From Escherichia phage vB_EcoP_B: a stretch of DNA of 44,018 nt. The translations under genes and the position numbers were made by a program. How positions within the stretch are numbered: the first letter of the stretch is position 1; each line of letters begins with the position of its first letter. The stretch is taken from sequence record NC_047806.1. The stretch is one strand, 5' to 3'. This document shows positions 1,811 to 34,512 of this stretch, piece after piece. The notes under the pieces are model-generated. The model did not search any database, was not told the origin of the DNA, and saw only the letters and a program-made list of their open reading frames with translations.

Positions 1811-1989
1811 TGGACCACCAGTTGTGCTCTAACACAATCCATAATGTAACGCTTCACTTCATCTACGATTAATTCTTCGTGAGTCTTAGTCACCTTCGGA
1901 GAAGAAGGCTTGAGAATCATCTCAAGCATCTCCATACCCTCAAATGAAATCGTCGGTTTCTTCTTCGTCTGTACCATAGAGTTCTTCAA
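1807..1989 (-). CDS. hypothetical protein (about 56-60 aa)
   Basis: ORF track; listed start is TTG, first ATG at 1975-1977 with weak SD; stop overlaps GNAT start. Confidence 0.3.
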   Translation of the reverse strand: MKNSMVQTKKKPTISFEGMEMLEMILKPSSPKVTKTHEELIVDEVKRYIMDCVRAQLVVQ

Positions 1990-2155
1990 CCTTCTCTTGG
2001 ATAGCTTCTACAGAAAGACCAAGCTCTTCTGCATCAGCTAGTAAGGTATATGGCACTTCCATGCCACAGGATAAAGTTTCAAAGATAGCTTCTGCTACCT
2101 CAACTGCACGAGTTGCCTTCATGCTATCAAAAGAAATCTGGTTCATCTTTGTCAT
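1940..2155 (-). CDS. hypothetical acidic protein (71 aa)
   Basis: ORF track; ATG 2153-2155; acidic C-terminus EEETDDFI. Confidence 0.4.
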   Translation of the reverse strand: MTKMNQISFDSMKATRAVEVAEAIFETLSCGMEVPYTLLADAEELGLSVEAIQEKVEELYGTDEEETDDFI

Positions 2156-3074
2156 GTCTTAATTCTCCAGCTTTGGGCAGACGAATGTTGCCCTTGCTTG
2201 AATCCTGAAGACCTTTTACTTCAAAGATTTTACCAATGACATTCAATCGTCCACCGTGTTTAATATCGTGGAACATCTGTTCTGCATCTGCATGAGTCCA
2301 CCCTTTACCTAACATAGCTTTGATTGTCTTGCCTCCTTTCCATTTGAAAATGAGGTTAGCTACCTTACCTTTGTACTTACCTTTGCCTTCTTCAAAGCCA
2401 ATACAAGTAAGGTCATAAGTTACCTTACGGACTTCTTTAGTCTGACGATAACCTTTGTGGCCTGCTTCATAATCACAGTCCAGTTTAAACACAGCACCCT
2501 CTCGGCCTGCGTCTATTTGCTCTTGCGCAAACGCTTCAACTTCTCGCTCATTATGGCAAGGAGTAATAGGAAGGATAGCGTTGTACCCGCTAAGATGAGC
2601 GCCGATGCGACGATGTAAAGCATCGTAACGTTTGAGATAAGAAACATCAGTGAATCCATCATGGAATGCCTTAATAGTTAACATATCGAAGAAGTCAATA
2701 TACAGGTTGTCTTTAATCTGCTGGCCTATGAAATCAAGTGGCTCTGTGCGATTAGGGTTAACTACTCCAGAAAGTGCTTCAAGGTAGACATCAACAGCCA
2801 TAGATTGCAACTCACCGAGATAAATGCCAGTAGGGAAAGCTGAATAAGATTCTTCCAAGGTTTCCGTGTTAGCCAGTTTCTTTCCAGTGCGTCCAAAGAC
2901 ACCAACGACACCATCGTTGCGAACAACCACAGCACTAAATATCCCATCTCGTTTTACCTGTGCATAACATGGAAAAGTTAATTTCTTCTCAGGTACTTCA
3001 CCGCGATGTTTCACCAGCATGAATGGGTGATTGCGGTGGTCTTCTGGAAGACCTAGGAATTGGAAGATATTCAT
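2127..3074 (-). CDS. ATP-dependent DNA ligase (315 aa)
   Basis: ORF track; nucleotidyltransferase motif I KRDG; strong SD GAAGGAGGTG; size/content like T7-group ligase. Confidence 0.75.
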   Translation of the reverse strand: MNIFQFLGLPEDHRNHPFMLVKHRGEVPEKKLTFPCYAQVKRDGIFSAVVVRNDGVVGVFGRTGKKLANTETLEESYSAFPTGIYLGELQSMAVDVYLEALSGVVNPNRTEPLDFIGQQIKDNLYIDFFDMLTIKAFHDGFTDVSYLKRYDALHRRIGAHLSGYNAILPITPCHNEREVEAFAQEQIDAGREGAVFKLDCDYEAGHKGYRQTKEVRKVTYDLTCIGFEEGKGKYKGKVANLIFKWKGGKTIKAMLGKGWTHADAEQMFHDIKHGGRLNVIGKIFEVKGLQDSSKGNIRLPKAGELRHDKDEPDFF

Positions 3075-5222: not shown

Positions 5223-5624
5223 TCATACTCCTTTCTTTCTTGCATAAGCAAGGCGTGCCTTACGGTTCTTAGCCTCGCGCTTCTCTGCCTCCGTTTGATG
5301 TTTGTGATATAACTTATCTGTCTGAGGCGTACTATGTAACTTCCAGTATTCATACAGTCGTTCTAACCATTGAAGCTGGAAGTAACGGTTATTACCTGCC
5401 TTGCCATAACCAGAGATAACACCCTTAATCTTCCCTTCCGCACCATTGCAGCCTCGGCATACAACAGCGCGGCAGAATCCTGTCTCATGGTCATGGTCAA
5501 GTACACGGTTTACAGGTGTGACAGCTTTGAGACTGCCGCCACACAGAGGGCATTTCCAGCCTTGCTTATCCAGCAATTCCTTCTTATAAGCTGCCACCTC
5601 CGATGCTTTTAATTTGCTAACCAT
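5223..5624 (-). CDS. endonuclease VII-like Holliday-junction resolvase (133 aa)
   Basis: ORF track; CPLCGG ... DHDHETGFCRAVVCRGCNGAEG resembles T4 endo VII zinc/HNH region. Confidence 0.65.
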   Translation of the reverse strand: MVSKLKASEVAAYKKELLDKQGWKCPLCGGSLKAVTPVNRVLDHDHETGFCRAVVCRGCNGAEGKIKGVISGYGKAGNNRYFQLQWLERLYEYWKLHSTPQTDKLYHKHQTEAEKREAKNRKARLAYARKKGV

Positions 5625-6637
5625 TCCGCATCATCTCCCCACAAGATTGGGTTCTTATCGGCTCGCCATATATCACCTTTGAATCTAGCCATGTGAGCTA
5701 GGCGACCACATTCAAGCATCAGGTCAAAGGCTTTGCCGATACGATAACCACCTCGGTAATTCTTAATCTTAACTTGTCCATGCCCGAACTTAGCCTTGTA
5801 AGCACCCAGCACTGCCATGTACAACTCTTTCTCTGTCTTACAATCTTTGAGAAGATCATAGGCATATTTAGCACCACGACCTGGTATGCCAGCATAGTTA
5901 TCAATATCATCACCGATAATCATCTGTGCATAGTGGAACATGAGGCCAGCACCTTTTAGATCTTTGACTTGCCCATTAGCCTTACGGCGTAGCTCAAGCC
6001 AGCCCATAGGCTCTACCCACTTCTTCTCTTGACCCGGCTGTAGATGCCAACCGGGAACAATCATCAAATCCTTATCCAAGGAAACGATGCAAGTATCAGA
6101 GAATGATTTATGCTCTGGACTACCGATAGGGAACTCGTTACCTGTATCTTGCTGGAAGCGGCGGTGGCTGTCCCATTGTGCGATACTCATGAGGTCGTCT
6201 GCTTCCTCTCCATCTGCCAAGATTGCACCGTGAACCTCTAAGAGATGCTCTCGCAATTCATAGAAGAATGGAGGCTTCTCGGTCTTACGTTGACCTTTAT
6301 AAGGCTTGGTGAATGCTAGGCGGACACGGAAGTTAGCTTCTGATTTCGTCATGAATAACTTAGCTGCATCACATTCTGCTGCATACACCCAAGAGTTAAG
6401 CAAGGAGTTCACACGGTCACACGCTTGCTTACACTCAGGCGTATCTTTGATTGATGGGACTTGTCCTGACTTAACACGAGTTGTGGCTCGTACATAAGTC
6501 ATGTCGCTGATTGTATACGCGACGATGTAAGGCAACATATCGGCATCTATTAAAGCGATTCGATTACCTTCAGTCGGCCACAGGATGAGATTATTGTCTT
6601 CCGATACTGTAGCTCCGAAGTCGAAGTTTGGTCGCAT
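5609..6637 (-). CDS. 5'-3' exonuclease (gp6-like), about 342 aa
   Basis: ORF track 5609..6646 (GTG start) trimmed to ATG with AAGGAG SD; LIDADMLPY and DKDL/GIPG blocks like T7 gene 6 exonuclease. Confidence 0.75.
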   Translation of the reverse strand: MRPNFDFGATVSEDNNLILWPTEGNRIALIDADMLPYIVAYTISDMTYVRATTRVKSGQVPSIKDTPECKQACDRVNSLLNSWVYAAECDAAKLFMTKSEANFRVRLAFTKPYKGQRKTEKPPFFYELREHLLEVHGAILADGEEADDLMSIAQWDSHRRFQQDTGNEFPIGSPEHKSFSDTCIVSLDKDLMIVPGWHLQPGQEKKWVEPMGWLELRRKANGQVKDLKGAGLMFHYAQMIIGDDIDNYAGIPGRGAKYAYDLLKDCKTEKELYMAVLGAYKAKFGHGQVKIKNYRGGYRIGKAFDLMLECGRLAHMARFKGDIWRADKNPILWGDDAEWLAN

Positions 6638-6822
6638 GTAGGCCACTCCTTCAAGAAGGAGGACACCGCATCATGGAGGTTCTGTCTTAACCAATAGTCA
6701 TCCCATTGTCTCACCTCCACTAGCTTCTCACCAGTTTTGTAATCATAGGCAACCCCAATATACTGTCTGGTGATTGCATTGTAGCTAATGTCCAGTTCAA
6801 TTCGAGATTCAATAGTCGGCAT
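6550..6822 (-). CDS. hypothetical protein (90 aa)
   Basis: ORF track; ATG 6820-6822 with GGAG SD; 3' end overlaps exonuclease start by about 90 nt. Confidence 0.35.
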   Translation of the reverse strand: MPTIESRIELDISYNAITRQYIGVAYDYKTGEKLVEVRQWDDYWLRQNLHDAVSSFLKEWPTCDQTSTSELQYRKTIISSCGRLKVIESL

Positions 6823-6939
6823 AATTCATTCTCCAATAACTATTACGCAAAAGACCCTGCCTACACTAAGGCAGACAGGGCATTAGATGAGGTGAGCGTG
6901 ATAGTCAACTAGGACTAACAGAGGCTACACCTGCTATTA

Positions 6940-7311
6940 TCAAAACTCTTCCTCTTCGCTAACCGGAGCTTCCGGTGCAGACACTTCTACTGCCGGAGCT
7001 TCAGCTTCTTCAGCAGCTTTGACTTCTTTCACTGGTTTACCAGCAGCAATCCAATCCAGATATTCAGCTACGATGTTAGCCTTACCGATCTGGGCTTTGT
7101 CAGCCTGCTCAGGGAAGCAAGCACGAGCGAACTCCAGACCAGCAGCGAAGTTACCCATGCTGTCAATCTTAGCCTGAGCTTCTTCACGGGTATCGTAAGC
7201 CTTAGTACCAGCTACCAGTTGATCAGCTTCATCGACGATAATGAAAGACTCAACGGATACCAGAGCAGCACCTTTAACAACACGGTTTACGATAGTTTCA
7301 ATCTTGAACAT
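6940..7311 (-). CDS. hypothetical protein with acidic C-terminal tail ending in Phe (123 aa)
   Basis: ORF track; AAGGAG SD; C-terminus ...PEAPVSEEEEF; directly downstream of phage promoter at 7364-7384. Confidence 0.55.
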   Translation of the reverse strand: MFKIETIVNRVVKGAALVSVESFIIVDEADQLVAGTKAYDTREEAQAKIDSMGNFAAGLEFARACFPEQADKAQIGKANIVAEYLDWIAAGKPVKEVKAAEEAEAPAVEVSAPEAPVSEEEEF

Positions 7312-7363
7312 ATTAAATTCTCCTTTTGTTGGTTATGGCATTATCGCCGATTAAAATTCTTCT

Positions 7364-7384
7364 CTTCTATAGTGTCCAGTAAAT
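7364..7384 (-). promoter_or_regulatory. phage RNAP promoter
   Basis: ATTTACTGGACACTATAGAAG. Confidence 0.7.
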
Positions 7385-7399
7385 ACCGGACACCGATTT

Positions 7400-7415
7400 G
7401 TCTCACACGTGAGAC
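7400..7415 (-). other. GTCTCAC..GTGAGAC palindromic hairpin element
   Basis: gtctcacacgtgagac; between gene end 7417 and promoter 7364-7384. Confidence 0.5.
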
Positions 7416-7416
7416 T

Positions 7417-7635
7417 TTATAAAACTGTGTTCACCTGAGCAATGTCATGCGCCGGAAGCGATACGCCGTGGCGTTTCCCCGTAGCTGGGTCGCTGTAGTT
7501 CACCACGTGCTGTCCGTCGCGCCAGATGTAGTGCAGGTCGGCATATGTGTCCCCTTCAGAGAAGGAGTGAAAAGTGTTGCCGCCAAGAGTTGTAATTCCT
7601 TTCTTGCAGTGCAGGGTTACGATTTGTACTTTCAT
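7417..7635 (-). CDS. hypothetical protein (72 aa)
   Basis: ORF track; ATG with TTAAGGAG SD. Confidence 0.5.
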   Translation of the reverse strand: MKVQIVTLHCKKGITTLGGNTFHSFSEGDTYADLHYIWRDGQHVVNYSDPATGKRHGVSLPAHDIAQVNTVL

Positions 7636-7644
7636 CCTTTCTCC

Positions 7645-8451
7645 TTAATATTCCGCGTCCTCATCCATCTCCGGTGCAGGAGTATCTTCTGCTTCAGGTA
7701 CTTCCTGTGGAACAGACTCACCAGTATCCAGAGATTTACGATTAGCTGGGGTAGCATCTTCCTCGTCTTTCTTCTTAGCCTTCTTCCATTCAGGGTCTTC
7801 TTCACGAGCAGCTTTGATAATAGCTTCTACGTGAGAGCCAGCAACAGACAGGTTCTTACCACGAGGTGTCTCGTTCAGGAAGTATTGACGTACCAAGTTA
7901 GCTGGGATGTCATCAAGGATTTCTTTGGTCAGCTTGTCGAAGGTGATATGACCTGTCATAGACAGACCTTCCTCTTCTACCTGAGCCAGTACAAGCTTCT
8001 TCAACTTATCAGGCATACCGCCAAAGCCTTTCCAGTTAACATACTTGAAAGTACCATCATCATTCTTGTCGCCAGAGCCAACCATAGTTGCAGTCAGACA
8101 TTCACCGATAAAATCATCGAAGCCACCCAGCAACTCTTTAGGGTCAACTGCATTCAGGAACTTAGTCAGTGTTGCCTTATCACCAGACTTCAGAGGCACA
8201 GCCATCCATTGTTCCATGCGAGAATCATCTTCATTCTTATCGTCGTCACCCATCAGGATAATCTTAACAAGAACAAAGTTTGCTGGCTTCTTAACTTCAG
8301 TGGTATTACCTTTCTTAAAGATATCTTGGAAGGAACCAACATGAATGATGCCAGAGATTACTGCTTCATGATCACCAACTTCAGGGTTCTTAAATACTTT
8401 ACCTTCAGCTTTAGTAACCTGAGCACCAAAATCAAAATCACCACGTGCCAT
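7645..8451 (-). CDS. single-stranded DNA-binding protein (gp2.5-like), 268 aa
   Basis: ORF track; long acidic C-terminal tail ending ...EMDEDAEY (acidic tail with terminal aromatic, as in T7 gp2.5); promoter at 8510-8530 upstream. Confidence 0.65.
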   Translation of the reverse strand: MARGDFDFGAQVTKAEGKVFKNPEVGDHEAVISGIIHVGSFQDIFKKGNTTEVKKPANFVLVKIILMGDDDKNEDDSRMEQWMAVPLKSGDKATLTKFLNAVDPKELLGGFDDFIGECLTATMVGSGDKNDDGTFKYVNWKGFGGMPDKLKKLVLAQVEEEGLSMTGHITFDKLTKEILDDIPANLVRQYFLNETPRGKNLSVAGSHVEAIIKAAREEDPEWKKAKKKDEEDATPANRKSLDTGESVPQEVPEAEDTPAPEMDEDAEY

Positions 8452-8509
8452 TTATTTAGTCTCCTATTGTTACACTACACAATCATAGGCAGAACTAAGC
8501 CGACCTATT

Positions 8510-8530
8510 GTTCTATAGTGTCCAGTAATT
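8510..8530 (-). promoter_or_regulatory. phage RNAP promoter (upstream of SSB)
   Basis: AATTACTGGACACTATAGAAC. Confidence 0.65.
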
Positions 8531-8828
8531 ACTTATGAACTACCTTAATACGTGCAATAGTATCGAGAGGGTAGACATAACTAACACATTCACCATCTTC
8601 AACCTCTTGTACATTTACACTAGCCATAGTGTCACAAAGTGAAAGGCTCAATTGATGACAAGTTTCACCTTGAGTAAACTCTGGACCACGATAGGCATCT
8701 GCTTGTTCCACAGTAGTGATTGCTGTATCGTCTTCTTTAGCCAGACGAGTGTGACCTGCAACTTTACGCTGCTCTAGATCACGAAAGATGATACCTACAT
8801 GTTTAGCTTGAATCACTTCTTCCATCAT
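8529..8828 (-). CDS. hypothetical protein (99 aa)
   Basis: ORF track; AAGGAG SD. Confidence 0.45.
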   Translation of the reverse strand: MMEEVIQAKHVGIIFRDLEQRKVAGHTRLAKEDDTAITTVEQADAYRGPEFTQGETCHQLSLSLCDTMASVNVQEVEDGECVSYVYPLDTIARIKVVHK

Positions 8829-9581: not shown

Positions 9582-12128
9582 TCAGTGTGTTTCCTTCCAA
9601 CTTGCACCAATCTTATACTCACCTGCCATCGGACAACGCATCTTCAGGTACTGACCTGCCCAAGTCATTGCATCGGCAATGATATGCCCTGCACGGTGAT
9701 AACGACGCTGGCAATGAAGTACACCAGCATCAGCATCAACACTAACGAGATTTGCAGCAGACCACATACGTCCTTCAGAATCCACATGAACACGTTTCTC
9801 CTCTGCATCGAACACTGCTTTCACAGCAGCCTTCTCTGTTTCGAACCCTTCTAAGGTGAAAGGCAAGTCGTAGTTGAGATACAAGACCTCATCTTCAGGG
9901 ACTTCCATCTGGATTTCATCGTGCACGTTAGCTATACCGCAAGGGTTTCCCATGCTATCTAAGGCCACACCTTCCTTGCGCATCACTGCAAACGCTCTGA
10001 CCAATGCGTATTTCATACACAGAGAACCAGTCATCTGGAGTAGTACGTTAAGCATAGTGTGCTCTTTAAGTTCACCACCAGACATACGGATGCGACCCCA
10101 ATGACCATCAGGTGCTTGTAGGTAGCCAAACTTGTTACCTTGTGCGATAACATTCTCACGAAGACGTGCAAGAGATGGTAGTTCAACCTCAAATCTTGCC
10201 ACAACTTCCTCCATTTCTTCCTCAGTAACACCACATACTGCTGCAAGGTTAGCTATACCAGACCCATATAGGAAGGCATATATAAATGTCTTCGCCATGT
10301 CACGCTTAGGAAGACCAGCCTTCATTTGATTATGGGTGTGAATGTCACCATGCAGTACAATATCTTGATATTCAGGGTCATTCATGAAGTGAGACAGTAC
10401 ACGTAGTTCAAGACCAGCACCATCACAACCAAGGATTAGCTTACCTTTACCGGCTATGAATAAATCACGTAAAGGATACAAACCACGGGCAGGAATATTA
10501 ACCACGTTACGATGACGCATACGGAACGTAGAAGTTCCAATACTAATAGCAATAGCTGGCACACGCCATTCTCCGTCATCCTTGTCTGACGTAGGCCAGC
10601 ATCCGTACCTTTCGTAGTATTGCTGCGCATTGATTCCTAACTCCTTGTTAAATGCTACAGGTACAAGGCCGCGACACTTTCGTATACCAGCTTGCGAAGG
10701 CCACACCCCCTTCTGGTCGAAGGCTTCAACGTCACCACGGTTGAGGATCTGACCACGACGGGATACGAGTATGTACCATGCAGCGATACCCAAGCACCAA
10801 TCAGGGACTGTTTTACCTTCACGTGCGGCTCTCTCTTGCCATAAAGTAAGGGACTTTTCATTTATCTTCCCACTCCAAGGCTTGGGTAATACGCCATGCT
10901 CATCGAGATGCGCTTGCTCGGTATCGTTAAATTCAACACCTTTCCATCCATAATCATAGAGCACTTGCTTAACTGTATCCCTGTTACCCAAGGGAATCTC
11001 TTCGAAAGTAACAGGCGAGTAAGCGCCAATCCACTTGATGCTTGGCGTGTCATTACGGTTTCCTCTAAGGTGAGGAAAGTCTTTCTTGACGCTAGCCGAC
11101 CAATCACCAGACTTAGTAGTGACACTCCATACTGTCTTGCGATCTCCTCGTCTCTCTGCGTGAAGAAAGTGAGAGGGGTCAAGGACAGTAGGTATATTGT
11201 TGCTAGCTCCATACTCATTTGCGCGTTGGCATACTTCATTCTTTTCTTCCGGTTTAAAAGGTTTAGACTTGATACGCATAGGCATGTGCGGACGGAACGC
11301 TGCGACTGTCTCATCAATCTTAGCGTCCAATTCCTCGCATCGTGCTAATGCTTTATCTATATCCAGACGGAATCCACGCTCGGCCTGACGGCTCATCTCC
11401 AGCGCCACAATGGACTCCATGTGGAAGGCTGTCTCAATACCTAGGCCAGTGCGTTTATTCACGCCACGGCGTTTGTGCTCCGTCCATTCTCCGTTAAATA
11501 GCCAGAGGAATAGGTCACGGCCTATCGCCACGTCCTCGCGTACACGATGTACCATGTGGTCAGTTAGTTTAGACCAATCCTCGTTCTCCGGCTTATAACG
11601 GCCTATACGAATGCCGTGCGCCTCAATTGAGTGAGGGGCTACGTTACCCATGCCTTTGGCGTATGCTTGCGGAGGGAGGCGTCTATCGGGGTTTAACAGG
11701 CGACTCATGACCAGCGTATCCATGACGCGTACCGGACACAGGTCAGCGCGGAGTCTGCCCTTGCCGCGTCTCTCGGTATAGTTAAAGCCTTTCCAGATAT
11801 CAGGGAATGCTTTCTCAAATAGAAGGCCGTCGTACCCTAGGAAGTTCTGTGAGACGATGGCTTCGCAGTGCTTAAGGAAGTTAACACCGTCAACCAATGT
11901 TCCATCTTGATGGCCTTCCCATTCTTTTAGGCGTTCTCTTGCTTCAGGGTCACGCATCTCGTATGGGTCAAAGAAGAGGAACTCCTCTGTAGTAAGCAAA
12001 TCCATGCAGCAAATGATGTGCACATCTTCGCGGTGGCCATATCGGATAGCATCCAGCAGGCCTTTAGCCTCAGAATCCATCACTAAGATGCGGCCTTCTG
12101 CTTCCTTCTTCCAATCAATTGATTTCAT
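9582..12128 (-). CDS. DNA polymerase (family A, T7 gp5-like), 848 aa
   Basis: ORF track 9582..12161 trimmed to ATG 12126-12128 with GGAG SD; motifs GCDGAGLELRVLSHF, KTFIYAFLYGSG, VHDEIQMEV match T7 DNA polymerase motifs A/B/C. Confidence 0.85.
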   Translation of the reverse strand: MKSIDWKKEAEGRILVMDSEAKGLLDAIRYGHREDVHIICCMDLLTTEEFLFFDPYEMRDPEARERLKEWEGHQDGTLVDGVNFLKHCEAIVSQNFLGYDGLLFEKAFPDIWKGFNYTERRGKGRLRADLCPVRVMDTLVMSRLLNPDRRLPPQAYAKGMGNVAPHSIEAHGIRIGRYKPENEDWSKLTDHMVHRVREDVAIGRDLFLWLFNGEWTEHKRRGVNKRTGLGIETAFHMESIVALEMSRQAERGFRLDIDKALARCEELDAKIDETVAAFRPHMPMRIKSKPFKPEEKNEVCQRANEYGASNNIPTVLDPSHFLHAERRGDRKTVWSVTTKSGDWSASVKKDFPHLRGNRNDTPSIKWIGAYSPVTFEEIPLGNRDTVKQVLYDYGWKGVEFNDTEQAHLDEHGVLPKPWSGKINEKSLTLWQERAAREGKTVPDWCLGIAAWYILVSRRGQILNRGDVEAFDQKGVWPSQAGIRKCRGLVPVAFNKELGINAQQYYERYGCWPTSDKDDGEWRVPAIAISIGTSTFRMRHRNVVNIPARGLYPLRDLFIAGKGKLILGCDGAGLELRVLSHFMNDPEYQDIVLHGDIHTHNQMKAGLPKRDMAKTFIYAFLYGSGIANLAAVCGVTEEEMEEVVARFEVELPSLARLRENVIAQGNKFGYLQAPDGHWGRIRMSGGELKEHTMLNVLLQMTGSLCMKYALVRAFAVMRKEGVALDSMGNPCGIANVHDEIQMEVPEDEVLYLNYDLPFTLEGFETEKAAVKAVFDAEEKRVHVDSEGRMWSAANLVSVDADAGVLHCQRRYHRAGHIIADAMTWAGQYLKMRCPMAGEYKIGASWKETH

Positions 12129-12456: not shown

Positions 12457-12474
12457 CTGTCTCACGTGTGAGAC
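12457..12474 (-). other. GTCTCAC..GTGAGAC palindromic hairpin element
   Basis: tgtctcacgtgtgagaca; intergenic. Confidence 0.5.
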
Positions 12475-13635: not shown

Positions 13636-13653
13636 TGTCTCACATATGAGACA
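13636..13653 (-). other. GTCTCAC..GTGAGAC palindromic hairpin element
   Basis: tgtctcacatatgagaca; between helicase stop and next gene. Confidence 0.5.
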
Positions 13654-13673: not shown

Positions 13674-15662
13674 TCAGAACTCACTTTCTTCATCGAAGTT
13701 AGTCTCTTCTATAGTGTCTGGTAAATCAGGTACTTCTTGTTGCCTTGCTTCACCTGTATCAAATGACTTAGTACGAGCTTGTGGTTCCATTAAACGTCCG
13801 GTTTGAATGTCACCCTTGAGCATGACCTTGGTTCCAGTGTAGATACCTTGGTCGCGGTCTTTGACACATGAGATGTACGTGGTAGTCCTTTCATCAAGCG
13901 TTTCAGCTCTTGTATTACGCTCAATCCCCAAGGCGTAAGATGCCCAGAATCCGATAGCGCCTGAGCCTCGGAAGTCAGAAAGGATAACTTCGCCACCTTC
14001 TTCGTGTTGGGTACGGTTTGCCGGAGGACGTGTAAGGTGAGAGACAAGGAAAATCGTAACCGCATGTCGATCTTTGATAGTACCAATTCGTTTGACGCAT
14101 TCATCAAGTGCACCAACCTTCCCACCAAAAGCACGCTCATCTAATTTAATCCCCGTTAAGTTATCAATGATGATATTAGAAATGCCCATAGCCTCAAACT
14201 CTAGGCAAGTTTGCTCTACCTTCTCCATAGAATAGTCACCCTCTAGGTCAGCTACAAACAGCTTCCCTGTATCAGCTACATAATCAATGGCGGCATTAGC
14301 CTCTTCCTCAGTATAGTCGAACACCTCACGGTATCCGTCTTCTTTCGGGTCATTGGTTGGCGGTAACTCAATGCGCTTATCAATCCACTTACCGATAAAA
14401 GCACGGGACACCTTGACCATCGGGTCTTCTGTAGAAATGATGCCTACAGATTCACCATGTTCTTCAATAAGATGTTTAACCACTTCGCGGAGGAACTCAG
14501 TCTTACCTACACCAGAGCCTGCACCTACAATGATAAGCTGGTTCTTACGAATACCTAGCGTTACCTTGTTCAGCTTAGGCCAAGGCCATGATAGCCCTTG
14601 CTCTGGACGTGCAGCCTTGAGCTTATCCCTTTGAGATGCGATAGATTTAATATGGCTACCAAAGACTTCATCAGATGACTTGGCATTAAACCAAGCATCA
14701 ACAAACTCTTTAGCCTTGCCAGCCATCAATGCCTTGTTAGCATCTTTGCAACCAGAAGGGTATTCAAGGATATAGGATTTGCCAGGAAACAGGCGAGCCG
14801 CTTGCTGATTCTGCTTCTGCCCTACCTCATCTCCATCAAAACCCCATATAATCTTCTTAAATTGGGCGATGTGTTCACGGTTCTGTACTATCTCTTCAAG
14901 GCAAGACTCACCTTTATTGACAGACCATACATGGTAAGGCTGGCCTTCCCACTTAGTACCCTTGGCAGAATCAAGGAGCATTTGCTGTGCTGCTAGTGCA
15001 TCCAGTTCGCCGCCGACAATGAGCAAGTGATCCTTTCGTCTTCCCTTGTCTAACACGTGAGACAAAGTATTCATCCCGAAAAGATCTTGCATACCAAAGA
15101 GTTTACCTAAATGACCAAACTTAAAGTCTTTAGGTAATGTGCGACACTTAGCGCCTACTAGTTCACCTTTCTCGAAGCGTGGATAGTAATGCCGTGAGAC
15201 TCTACCCTCTTCATCGTGTCCGACACGTACATCATACAATGCGCAAATGTCGCCGCGAATGTGTCGGGAAACAAGATTCTTACGCTTAAGCGTGAGGAAC
15301 CATTCAACATCAAGTTTCCACTCTGCTTCTTGGTCTGCCCTTTCTTGCTCATTCATGACCTCCCATCGGTCTTTCATACGCATGCCACCAAGTGCGATGG
15401 CGCGTAACTTAGGGTCGCTTATCTTCCCTTCCTTCTCCATCTCTTTGAATTGAGAAGGTGTATATTTGATATTGCCAGTAATAGGCAACTCGGTGATCTC
15501 GATGCCACCATCTGGCTTATGATAGTAAGGCTTGCCGTTATCGTGGAAATGACCACGGTTACAATAGCCAGCACCATCATCAAATATCATGAGATGATTG
15601 CCGGATTTATCGTGTCCATTCTTCTGGCAGGCAGGGCACGGGATGTTATTAATAATAGCCAT
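13674..15662 (-). CDS. bifunctional DNA primase/helicase (gp4-like), 662 aa
   Basis: ORF track; N-terminal zinc ribbon CPACQ...CNRGH, Walker A GAGSGVGKT, acidic C-terminus ending ...FDEESEF; AAGGTG SD. Confidence 0.85.
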   Translation of the reverse strand: MAIINNIPCPACQKNGHDKSGNHLMIFDDGAGYCNRGHFHDNGKPYYHKPDGGIEITELPITGNIKYTPSQFKEMEKEGKISDPKLRAIALGGMRMKDRWEVMNEQERADQEAEWKLDVEWFLTLKRKNLVSRHIRGDICALYDVRVGHDEEGRVSRHYYPRFEKGELVGAKCRTLPKDFKFGHLGKLFGMQDLFGMNTLSHVLDKGRRKDHLLIVGGELDALAAQQMLLDSAKGTKWEGQPYHVWSVNKGESCLEEIVQNREHIAQFKKIIWGFDGDEVGQKQNQQAARLFPGKSYILEYPSGCKDANKALMAGKAKEFVDAWFNAKSSDEVFGSHIKSIASQRDKLKAARPEQGLSWPWPKLNKVTLGIRKNQLIIVGAGSGVGKTEFLREVVKHLIEEHGESVGIISTEDPMVKVSRAFIGKWIDKRIELPPTNDPKEDGYREVFDYTEEEANAAIDYVADTGKLFVADLEGDYSMEKVEQTCLEFEAMGISNIIIDNLTGIKLDERAFGGKVGALDECVKRIGTIKDRHAVTIFLVSHLTRPPANRTQHEEGGEVILSDFRGSGAIGFWASYALGIERNTRAETLDERTTTYISCVKDRDQGIYTGTKVMLKGDIQTGRLMEPQARTKSFDTGEARQQEVPDLPDTIEETNFDEESEF
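13706..13726 (-). promoter_or_regulatory. phage RNAP promoter inside 3' end of helicase gene
   Basis: ATTTACCAGACACTATAGAAG. Confidence 0.6.
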
Positions 15663-16065: not shown

Positions 16066-16081
16066 GTCTCACATGTGAGAC
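16066..16081 (-). other. GTCTCAC..GTGAGAC palindromic hairpin element
   Basis: perfect 16-bp palindrome gtctcacatgtgagac, 5 nt upstream of promoter 16038-16060. Confidence 0.55.
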
Positions 16082-16247: not shown

Positions 16248-16263
16248 GTCTCACATGTGAGAC
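16248..16263 (-). other. GTCTCAC..GTGAGAC palindromic hairpin element
   Basis: perfect 16-bp palindrome, 3 nt upstream of promoter 16224-16244. Confidence 0.55.
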
Positions 16264-21915: not shown

Positions 21916-22085
21916 TTGTCTAACGTGTGAGACTAAGGAAAAAAAAAAAAAAAAAAAAGCAATAGATACAGAGCTAGGATAGGCTAGATTGGCTAGGTAT
22001 TCCAAACGTGAAGGGGAGAAAAAGGAAAAAAAAAAAAAAAAAAAAGCAATAGATACAGAGCTAGGATAGGCTAGATTGGCTAGGT
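21916..22085. repeat. tandem direct repeat (two about 87-bp units) each containing an A20 tract; probable genome-terminus / terminal-repeat junction
   Basis: 62-bp exact repeat GG-A20-GCAATAGATACAGAGCTAGGATAGGCTAGATTGGCTAGGT at 21937-21998 and 22024-22085; lies between last late gene and first early gene. Confidence 0.7.
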
Positions 22086-34494: not shown

Positions 34495-34512
34495 TGTCTC
34501 ACATGTGAGACA
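34495..34512 (-). other. GTCTCAC..GTGAGAC palindromic hairpin element
   Basis: perfect 18-bp palindrome tgtctcacatgtgagaca between internal virion protein genes. Confidence 0.55.

Follow-up and report, generated by a model that had tools for sequence, protein, structure and literature searches.

Bacteriophage T7 provides the textbook case of a minimal replisome, and the acidic tails on its helicase and on its SSB (the protein that binds single-stranded DNA) are the known glue of this machinery. The tail of the T7 helicase gp4, which ends ...SNDTDF, holds the polymerase at the fork, and in Escherichia coli the SSB C-terminus ...DFDDDIPF is the hub for SSB-interacting proteins. To our knowledge, little biochemistry has been done on the SP6 sister group, which comprises SP6, K1E, K1-5 and many therapeutic phages of Klebsiella, Salmonella and Vibrio. 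In T7, basic patches of the polymerase, and also the helicase, are docking sites for the tail of the SSB gp2.5; the front basic patch of the polymerase (K587/K589/R590/R591) binds the gp2.5 and gp4 tails, and the terminal Phe of gp2.5 is required (PMC12339929; bioRxiv 10.64898/2026.02.22.705581). Stimulation of the T7 gp6 exonuclease also needs the gp2.5 tail (PMC4124056). Here, we analysed a stretch of 44,018 nucleotides from Escherichia phage vB_EcoP_B (NC_047806.1; the whole stretch is referred to as the window), in which the small gene gp18 encodes a third protein with an acidic, aromatic-ended tail, next to the helicase and to gp16, the presumed SSB. While such tails are known already as replisome glue in T7, the literature searched described no third carrier besides SSB and helicase that has a promoter-terminator cassette to itself, is apparently produced in large amounts and is conserved throughout the SP6 group, nor did we find there any study of gp18.

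The window derives from the SP6 group (Vectrevirus, Molineuxvirinae, Autographiviridae) and megablast of the region showed 96-99.9% identity to K1E/K1-5 and many Vectrevirus genomes; its genes lie on the minus strand and it is permuted compared to the K1-5 record. The gp18 coding sequence (6940..7311, minus strand) starts with an ATG, 8 nt downstream of the ribosome-binding site AAGGAG (7320..7325, minus strand), and encodes a protein of 123 amino acids (13.2 kDa, pI 4.4) ending in ...PEAPVSEEEEF. A first-pass annotation of this DNA, made from its letters alone, had singled out this open reading frame (ORF) as a third acidic, aromatic-ended protein beside a helicase ending in FDEESEF and an SSB ending in EMDEDAEY, and had called it unannotated. 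The ORF and its ending were reproduced from the sequence, as was the end ...NFDEESEF of the primase-helicase (13674..15662, minus strand; 662 amino acids), which is a true homologue of T7 gp4 (tblastn E = 9e-28). The gene is present in the public records, though, as gp18 in the K1-5/K1E numbering and as SP6_20 in one SP6 annotation, corresponding to phrog_4429, and every public record labels it a hypothetical protein.

Structure prediction of gp18 alone, which the first-pass annotation had proposed, divides the protein into a globular domain (residues 1-95; 7027..7311, minus strand; pLDDT ~90) and a segment predicted to be disordered (residues 96-123; pLDDT <50-55). This AlphaFold2 model was built on an alignment of divergent homologues and replaced a poor run on a shallow alignment (pLDDT 66). 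The domain comprises a beta-hairpin (residues 3-13 and 16-26) followed by helices at residues 42-51, 55-65 and 71-89, with K37, A45, G58, K77-A78-N79, A82, W87 and G91 as core conserved residues, and is nearly invariant in an alignment of 16 close relatives. In the same alignment, the linker that follows (residues 96-117; 6961..7026, minus strand), which is rich in Ala, Glu, Pro and Val and probably flexible (pLDDT <50, indels in alignments), varies by substitutions and indels whereas the terminal S-x-E-E-E-F is fixed. In gp18 itself this C-terminal motif reads S-E-E-E-E-F (6940..6960 including the stop codon, minus strand). A variable tether with a fixed tip is the pattern of a tethered short linear motif. 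The whole protein contains 24 acidic compared to 12 basic residues, distributed as a net charge of about -3 in the globular part and 10 acidic versus 1 basic residue in the 28-residue tail.

Gp18 therefore has the disordered, strongly acidic C-terminal segment that characterizes the docking tails of T7 gp2.5 and gp4, and like gp2.5 (ending in ...EADEDGDF) it closes with Phe. Unlike gp2.5, its body is a beta-hairpin with three helices and a net negative charge, without sequence or profile similarity to the T7 protein, and its motif is E-E-x-F compared to D-x-D-F. With gp4 and the window helicase gp18 shares an acidic, Phe-ended terminus, but in contrast to gp4 it is no helicase or NTPase, and its small gene stands apart, equipped with a promoter and a terminator of its own. 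Similarly, acidic residues and a C-terminal Phe whose carboxylate is free, carried on a flexible linker, are common to the bacterial SSB tail and gp18, whereas gp18 lacks the Ile-Pro before the Phe and has a non-SSB body.

The conservation of the tail in homologues had been put forward as a test by the first-pass annotation, and it was largely borne out. All 120 listed homologues with 78-99% identity end in S[EA]EEEF. A profile search of 1.84 billion cluster representatives yielded 29 matches, from which three spurious repeat proteins and the chimeric P0145 were left out, giving 25 representatives; upon inspection, the large repeat proteins P0142 and P0146 proved to be spurious, repeat-summed matches to the gp18 profile. 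The genuine divergent homologues measure 87-149 amino acids and are 26-58% identical to gp18. The phrog_4429 profile, which matches gp18 over its full length (E = 2.3e-58, residues 1-123), is matched by all 24 divergent members. An acidic stretch with a terminal F is present in 17/25 representatives (endings include EEVDF, EEETF, GETF, EVEF, DEAF, EESF, DETF, GEQF, DENF, GEDF and VEEF), the F lies 1-6 residues from the end in 4/25, and 4/25 have no F. The tail is kept in most of the divergent relatives, whose phages infect Vibrio, Pseudomonas, Aeromonas, Marinomonas, Erwinia and other hosts, even though sequence and length of the preceding linker vary, and on these alignments the gp18 tail is broadly conserved, though not universal.

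The tail type is shared with few other proteins. Among the ~55 gene-sense ORFs of the window, at least four acidic residues in the last eight together with a terminal aromatic residue are found only in the helicase, gp16, gp18 and the ATP-dependent DNA ligase (2127..3074, minus strand), while composition predicts ~0.03 such ORFs per genome by chance. The first-pass annotation had picked out the first three and missed the ligase, which ends in ...HDKDEPDFF. Orthologues were identified in ~20 distinct genomes, taken from GenBank and IMG/VR loci and belonging to phages that infect at least 10 genera; here, ..xEF (or Y) is almost always the end of the helicase, while gp16 ends in ..xEF and the gp18 homologue in ..EExF. 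When the family profiles of gp18 and gp16 are compared, only the last four residues align (eEeF vs d~Ef). Common ancestry of the two proteins was for this reason rejected, and the profiles indicate a shared motif on unrelated bodies. The ligase orthologues nearly always end in HDKxxxDF or DY, two of the loci examined ending otherwise; the ligase may be a fourth user of an aromatic docking site, or its ending may just be part of the fold.

One lineage changes several of these tails together. In the BUCT553-like clade (loci L004, L007, L008, L009, L011 and L012), one or two residues follow the Phe in both gp16 (..EFGE, ..VFE, ..TFD) and the gp18 homologue (..TFE, ..SFEG, ..AFEG, ..SFS). This non-terminal Phe occurs in both proteins in 6/6 genomes, and in the helicase in 2/5 (L009, ..TFD; L011, ..TFE). 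In all other complete loci examined, the aromatic residue is exactly terminal in the helicase, gp16 and the gp18 homologue. Because the same constraint is relaxed or shifted in several proteins of one lineage, the joint shift of the Phe in gp18 and gp16 suggests a common receptor.

Gp16 (7645..8451, minus strand; 268 amino acids) indeed ends in EMDEDAEY, as the first-pass annotation had it, and has its own promoter (8508-8530, minus strand), but the designation as SSB was not supported by searches for gp2.5 or SSB relatives. Comparison by hhalign of a 20-sequence profile revealed no similarity to T7 gp2.5, and for gp16 neither a Pfam family nor a relative in the PDB was found, nor any signature of an OB-fold or SSB; none of 46 clusters carries an informative name and all 215 phage records call it hypothetical. 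The NCBIfam model "phage replication initiation protein, NGO0469 family" was matched below threshold (E = 0.0015). No T7 gp2.5 homologue was detected elsewhere in the window by tblastn. Gp16 is nevertheless the best SSB candidate because of its size, position, promoter, codon bias and tail, and because there is no other SSB candidate; we therefore speak of a presumed SSB.

By tblastn, the gp18 family was found in ~200 phage records, all of them 42-47-kb SP6-like Autographiviridae (Molineuxvirinae, Colwellvirinae and unclassified) with hosts among Escherichia, Klebsiella, Salmonella, Proteus, Erwinia, Pectobacterium, Vibrio, Pseudomonas, Aeromonas, Marinomonas, Edwardsiella and others. The gp16 family, found in 215 phage records, has a nearly identical genus-by-genus spread. 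The gene order is conserved as DNA polymerase, small ORFs, gp16, zero to two small ORFs, gp18 homologue, exonuclease and endonuclease VII, with the ligase further downstream, and is kept in Marinomonas CB5A, Vibrio phi-A318, Pseudomonas BUCT553, Aeromonas Aer_P220 and Edwardsiella WCT72P1. Judged by this synteny, gp18 is a core gene of SP6-like phages that always lies within the replication/recombination module.

Gp18 is insulated by expression signals of its own. The dedicated promoter claimed by the first-pass annotation was confirmed: ATTTACTGGACACTATAGAAGAG (7362..7384, minus strand, reading from 7384 to 7362) is a perfect match to the consensus of the phage RNA polymerase promoter, one of two perfect matches among the seven found in the window, with none expected by chance. 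A promoter-like ..TATAGA.. element lies at most 100 nt upstream of the gp18 homologue in 19/22 lineages, and in Vibrio phage phi-A318 the promoter of the homologue is annotated as phiA54. Directly 3' of gp18, a terminator (6848..6881, minus strand) is formed by an 11-bp GC-rich hairpin with a T-run (dG ~ -18 kcal/mol). Only three strong terminators of this hairpin and T-run type are present on the gene strand of the whole 44-kb window, namely after gp18, the RNA polymerase and the major capsid gene (the latter two in the 16303 and 41358 regions, minus strand), and those of gp18 and the capsid gene resemble each other. In 22/22 lineages, the stop codon of the homologue is followed after 37-87 nt by a hairpin (dG -16 to -25 kcal/mol) with TTTTG behind it, the sequence differing between lineages. 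In the SP6-like phage UAB_Phi78, one of four terminators likewise directly follows a gene of unknown function (PMC4837284). Since the promoter scan of the window found no promoter between the gp18 terminator and the downstream genes from exonuclease (5609..6646, minus strand) to ligase, these genes are probably expressed by read-through of the terminator.

Codon usage points to a high expression level. The fraction of host-optimal codons is 0.76 in gp18, the highest of 26 genes, compared to 0.70 in the capsid gene and 0.64 in gp16; with amino acid composition corrected for, these three genes are outliers, gp18 reaching a z-score of 4.8 between the capsid gene (7.5) and gp16 (4.6), with the next gene at 2.8. 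Gp18 is thus predicted to be, probably, among the most abundant phage proteins, which favours a stoichiometric over a catalytic role.

By analogy with T7, the candidate receptor of the tail is the DNA polymerase (9582..12122, minus strand), which is distantly homologous to its T7 counterpart (34% identity over palm and fingers). The segment aligned with the T7 front basic patch, DGHWGRIRMSGGELKE, is conserved as DG[RH]WGR[IV]R[KRM]..GK in an alignment of 18 sequences, and its most basic version (RR[ST]GKKIKV) is found precisely in the BUCT553-like clade, whose tails are extended. The window polymerase has no counterpart of the thioredoxin-binding domain of T7 (region 262-338), but a distinct insertion of ~100 residues instead. 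This insertion (polymerase residues ~270-420), …R[IV]GKR.T.W…T.K.GDYSA.[LV]KK.[FY]PEM.GN.NDT…, is conserved across the SP6-like lineages examined.

Taken together, we tentatively propose, with a probability of about 0.42 and by analogy with T7, that gp18 is an abundant accessory protein of the replisome or of recombination that is docked by an SSB-type tail. Gp18 combines a compact domain of 95 residues with a linker of ~22 residues, both flexible and acidic, and with a peptide ...E-E-x-F at the C-terminus. This peptide would be a short docking motif like those that end the helicase and gp16, and presumably binds their receptor site. A basic surface of the phage DNA polymerase would be the most likely receptor, as for T7 gp2.5 and gp4, and the exonuclease or gp16 itself could be further ones. 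In this way, the globular domain might be held at the replisome, or on DNA coated with SSB, by means of the tail. What the domain would do there is a guess: the predicted SSB- or capsid-like amounts and the lack of enzyme-like features lead us to think of a stoichiometric, non-enzymatic adaptor or regulator. The first-pass annotation had suggested either an additional replisome-docking protein or a competitive regulator of polymerase-SSB-helicase contacts. The conserved tail, its shift together with gp16 and the replication/recombination context agree with the docking idea, while a purely competitive regulator consisting of a tail alone is unlikely, as four divergent lineages keep the globular domain without a Phe tail.

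Several observations weigh against this proposal. The four homologues without a terminal Phe end in ..GDVEVA, ..GAPEAT, ..AGKASE and ..DTFTSSTD, next to a gp16-like gene that ends in ..ATEEF, ..DEDEEF, ..DDSKDF or ..DEDEDFS; these cases are single short metagenome contigs, and as they read the gp18 tail is dispensable in some lineages. The globular domain, being kept where the tail was lost, must therefore have a role without the tail, which also argues against gp18 as a mere competing tail. The co-ordinated tail change is limited to one clade and represents one or few events, without independent replication. Furthermore, helicase and gp16 have E as the penultimate residue in nearly all cases, while the gp18 homologues vary at this position (E, S, T, A or D), and therefore one and the same receptor for all tails is not a necessity. 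Where the polymerase is aligned with the T7 basic patch, identity is low and gaps occur, so that this match is suggestive only, and the presumed SSB, gp16, bears no detectable similarity to gp2.5 or any SSB family. Finally, an abundant competitor at the polymerase docking site seems harmful to replication unless it acts positively there.

Conversely, gp18 could be directed at the host, as a decoy or inhibitor made in bulk to titrate an abundant host factor, an explanation that we consider unlikely but the best placed of the alternatives. Its acidic tail would mimic single-stranded DNA (ssDNA) or an SSB tail, and its targets might be host proteins that read the SSB tail (..DDDIPF partners), a nucleoid protein, the host RNA polymerase, a nuclease or a defence sensor, in analogy to the T7 class II proteins gp2, gp5.5 and gp5.9. 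Among these, T7 gp5.5 is an abundant class II protein that counteracts H-NS, and like gp18 it is small (~100 amino acids), encoded between polymerase and exonuclease and Phe-ended (…REVF). The very high predicted expression of gp18, its small size, its strong acidity (pI 4.4, 24 acidic vs 12 basic residues), the lack of enzyme-like or nucleic-acid-binding features and of a fold neighbour, its position in the slot of T7 gp5.5, gp5.7 and gp5.9 and the persistence of its domain after tail loss all fit a host-directed role, as does the fact that tblastn detected no homologues of T7 gp5.5 or gp5.9 in the window (T7 gp2 was not among the queries). The gp18 tail is, however, devoid of the Ile-Pro of the host SSB motif, and the Phe followed by 1-2 residues in one clade would not fit the host SSB-tail pocket; that it shifted jointly with the tail of the phage protein gp16 rather indicates a phage-internal receptor. 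A domain conserved from phages of Enterobacterales to those of Vibrio, Pseudomonas and Marinomonas would moreover need an equally conserved host target. In contrast to gp18, the end of T7 gp5.5 is no acidic tail on a disordered linker, and profile comparison shows no similarity between the two proteins.

Less probable still is that gp18 serves as a co-factor or chaperone of the SSB, in which its tail would occupy the ssDNA cleft of gp16 in trans, much as the tail of T7 gp2.5 does with its own cleft, or its globular domain would sit on gp16, so that gp18, stoichiometric with gp16, tunes the loading of gp16 on ssDNA or its removal. Outside the structural genes, codon optimisation is strongest in gp18 and gp16, which are near neighbours with a promoter each; their phyletic distributions coincide, and in the BUCT553-like clade the gp18 tail tracks gp16 (6/6) more closely than it tracks the helicase (2/5). 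On the other hand, no OB-fold or SSB signature was detected in gp16, and co-distribution is expected of any two core genes in one phage group. We regard as similarly doubtful a broader arrangement in which the replisome of the SP6 group would be of a hub type, with the helicase, gp16, gp18 and possibly the ligase competing by C-terminal acidic/Phe peptides for a common receptor on the polymerase, and with gp18, non-enzymatic and at capsid level, either regulating how far this receptor is occupied, as a tail buffer or hand-off switch, or acting as a polymerase subunit replacing host thioredoxin.

That gp18 is a processivity or accessory subunit of the polymerase, the small acidic stand-in of the phage for host thioredoxin, appears improbable. 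In all SP6-like polymerases compared, the thioredoxin-binding domain is replaced by the distinct conserved insertion, a replacement that would leave room for a phage-encoded accessory subunit (a link that we rank low); gp18 is, as thioredoxin, acidic and of such a size (~13 kDa), and it co-occurs with this type of polymerase in every locus examined. Yet a 1:1 subunit needs no capsid-level expression, the gp18 fold is not thioredoxin-like and the tail is lost in some lineages. The least credible option, an acidic solubility or "entropic bristle" appendage without a specific partner and with an incidental Phe, would suit the four tail-less lineages and the poorly conserved linker, but is contradicted by a terminal EEEF that is invariant in 120/120 homologues beside a linker of variable sequence and length, by the recurrence of an aromatic terminus across a family of 26-58% identity, by the same motif on helicase and gp16 in every complete locus examined and by the ~0.03 such proteins per genome expected by chance.

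Beyond phrog_4429, no relatives of gp18 were found in Pfam, NCBIfam or PDB sequence searches, and structure searches with the globular model returned no significant fold neighbour, with no SSB among significant hits. An OB-fold protein like gp2.5 does not match the model of a beta-hairpin with three helices, and tblastn with T7 gp2.5 finds nothing in the window. The likeness of the N-terminal beta-beta-alpha part to DUF1508/UPF0339 (YegP-like) is weak and below significance, without a Pfam match, and would in any case say nothing on gp18 function, the function of that family itself being unknown. Membership of the T7 gp5.5 family (DUF2675) received an hhalign probability of 0.1% and no Pfam DUF2675 match, and was rejected.

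Some further features of the module were observed. An N-terminal motif F-[DN]-[FY]-G-[GA]-x-[VI] is common to gp16 (MARGDFDFGAQV.., containing DFDFGAQV; 8416-8439, minus strand) and the 5'-3' exonuclease (..RPNFDFGATV.., containing NFDFGATV; 6605-6628, minus strand), which lies downstream of the gp18 terminator, and to their orthologues in loci L002-L024, L030 and L031. Near the N-terminus it occurs in 44/772 ORFs of L001-L024, the count expected from the gp16 and exonuclease families alone, and it co-varies between both proteins, being FDFGA in both in K1E-like phages and FDYGG in both in Colwellvirinae; T7 gp6 is without it. It may be another docking peptide that the two proteins have in common, or an N-terminal module found in both. 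On either side of gp16, gp17 (72 amino acids; 7417-7635, minus strand) and gp15.5 (99 amino acids; 8529-8828, minus strand) match one PHROG family, phrog_8057, the match of gp17 being weak, and Colwellvirinae have one 91-amino-acid homologue between gp16 and the gp18 homologue, which suggests a small paralogous pair flanking gp16. The same module also encodes gp25 (71 amino acids; 1940-2155, minus strand), another small acidic-tailed protein, which ends in ...TDEEETDDFI and whose homologues have very acidic ends too (..EDEDD, ..DEQDY, ..EEETDY).

Between the gp17 stop codon and the gp18 promoter lies a palindromic hairpin element, GTCTCACACGTGAGAC (7400..7415). This palindrome of 16-17 nt, GTCTCAC-N2-3-GTGAGAC, recurs in intergenic regions, often just past a stop codon and shortly upstream of a phage promoter or ribosome-binding site, with no copies expected by chance: exact copies are located at 7400-7415, 12459-12474, 16066-16081, 16248-16263 and 34496-34511, and copies with one mismatch at 13637-13652, 15048-15063 and 21918-21933. 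The same palindrome is present at 1-6 copies per 10-20 kb locus in L001, L003-L012, L020 and L021, covering SP6-like phages of Vibrio, Pseudomonas-type and Erwinia-type lineages with polymerases only ~50% identical, which suggests a recognition site, for instance for RNA processing or protein binding.

Through this analysis, an anonymous core gene of the SP6-like phages gains four traits: a shared tail type, insulation by promoter and terminator, a codon signature of high abundance and a tail change in common with the presumed SSB. If gp18 indeed binds the polymerase or gp16, it would add a fourth type of component to the minimal replisome, and its binding could matter for the in vitro use of SP6-type polymerases. 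If it binds a host protein instead, gp18 would be a new factor in host takeover.

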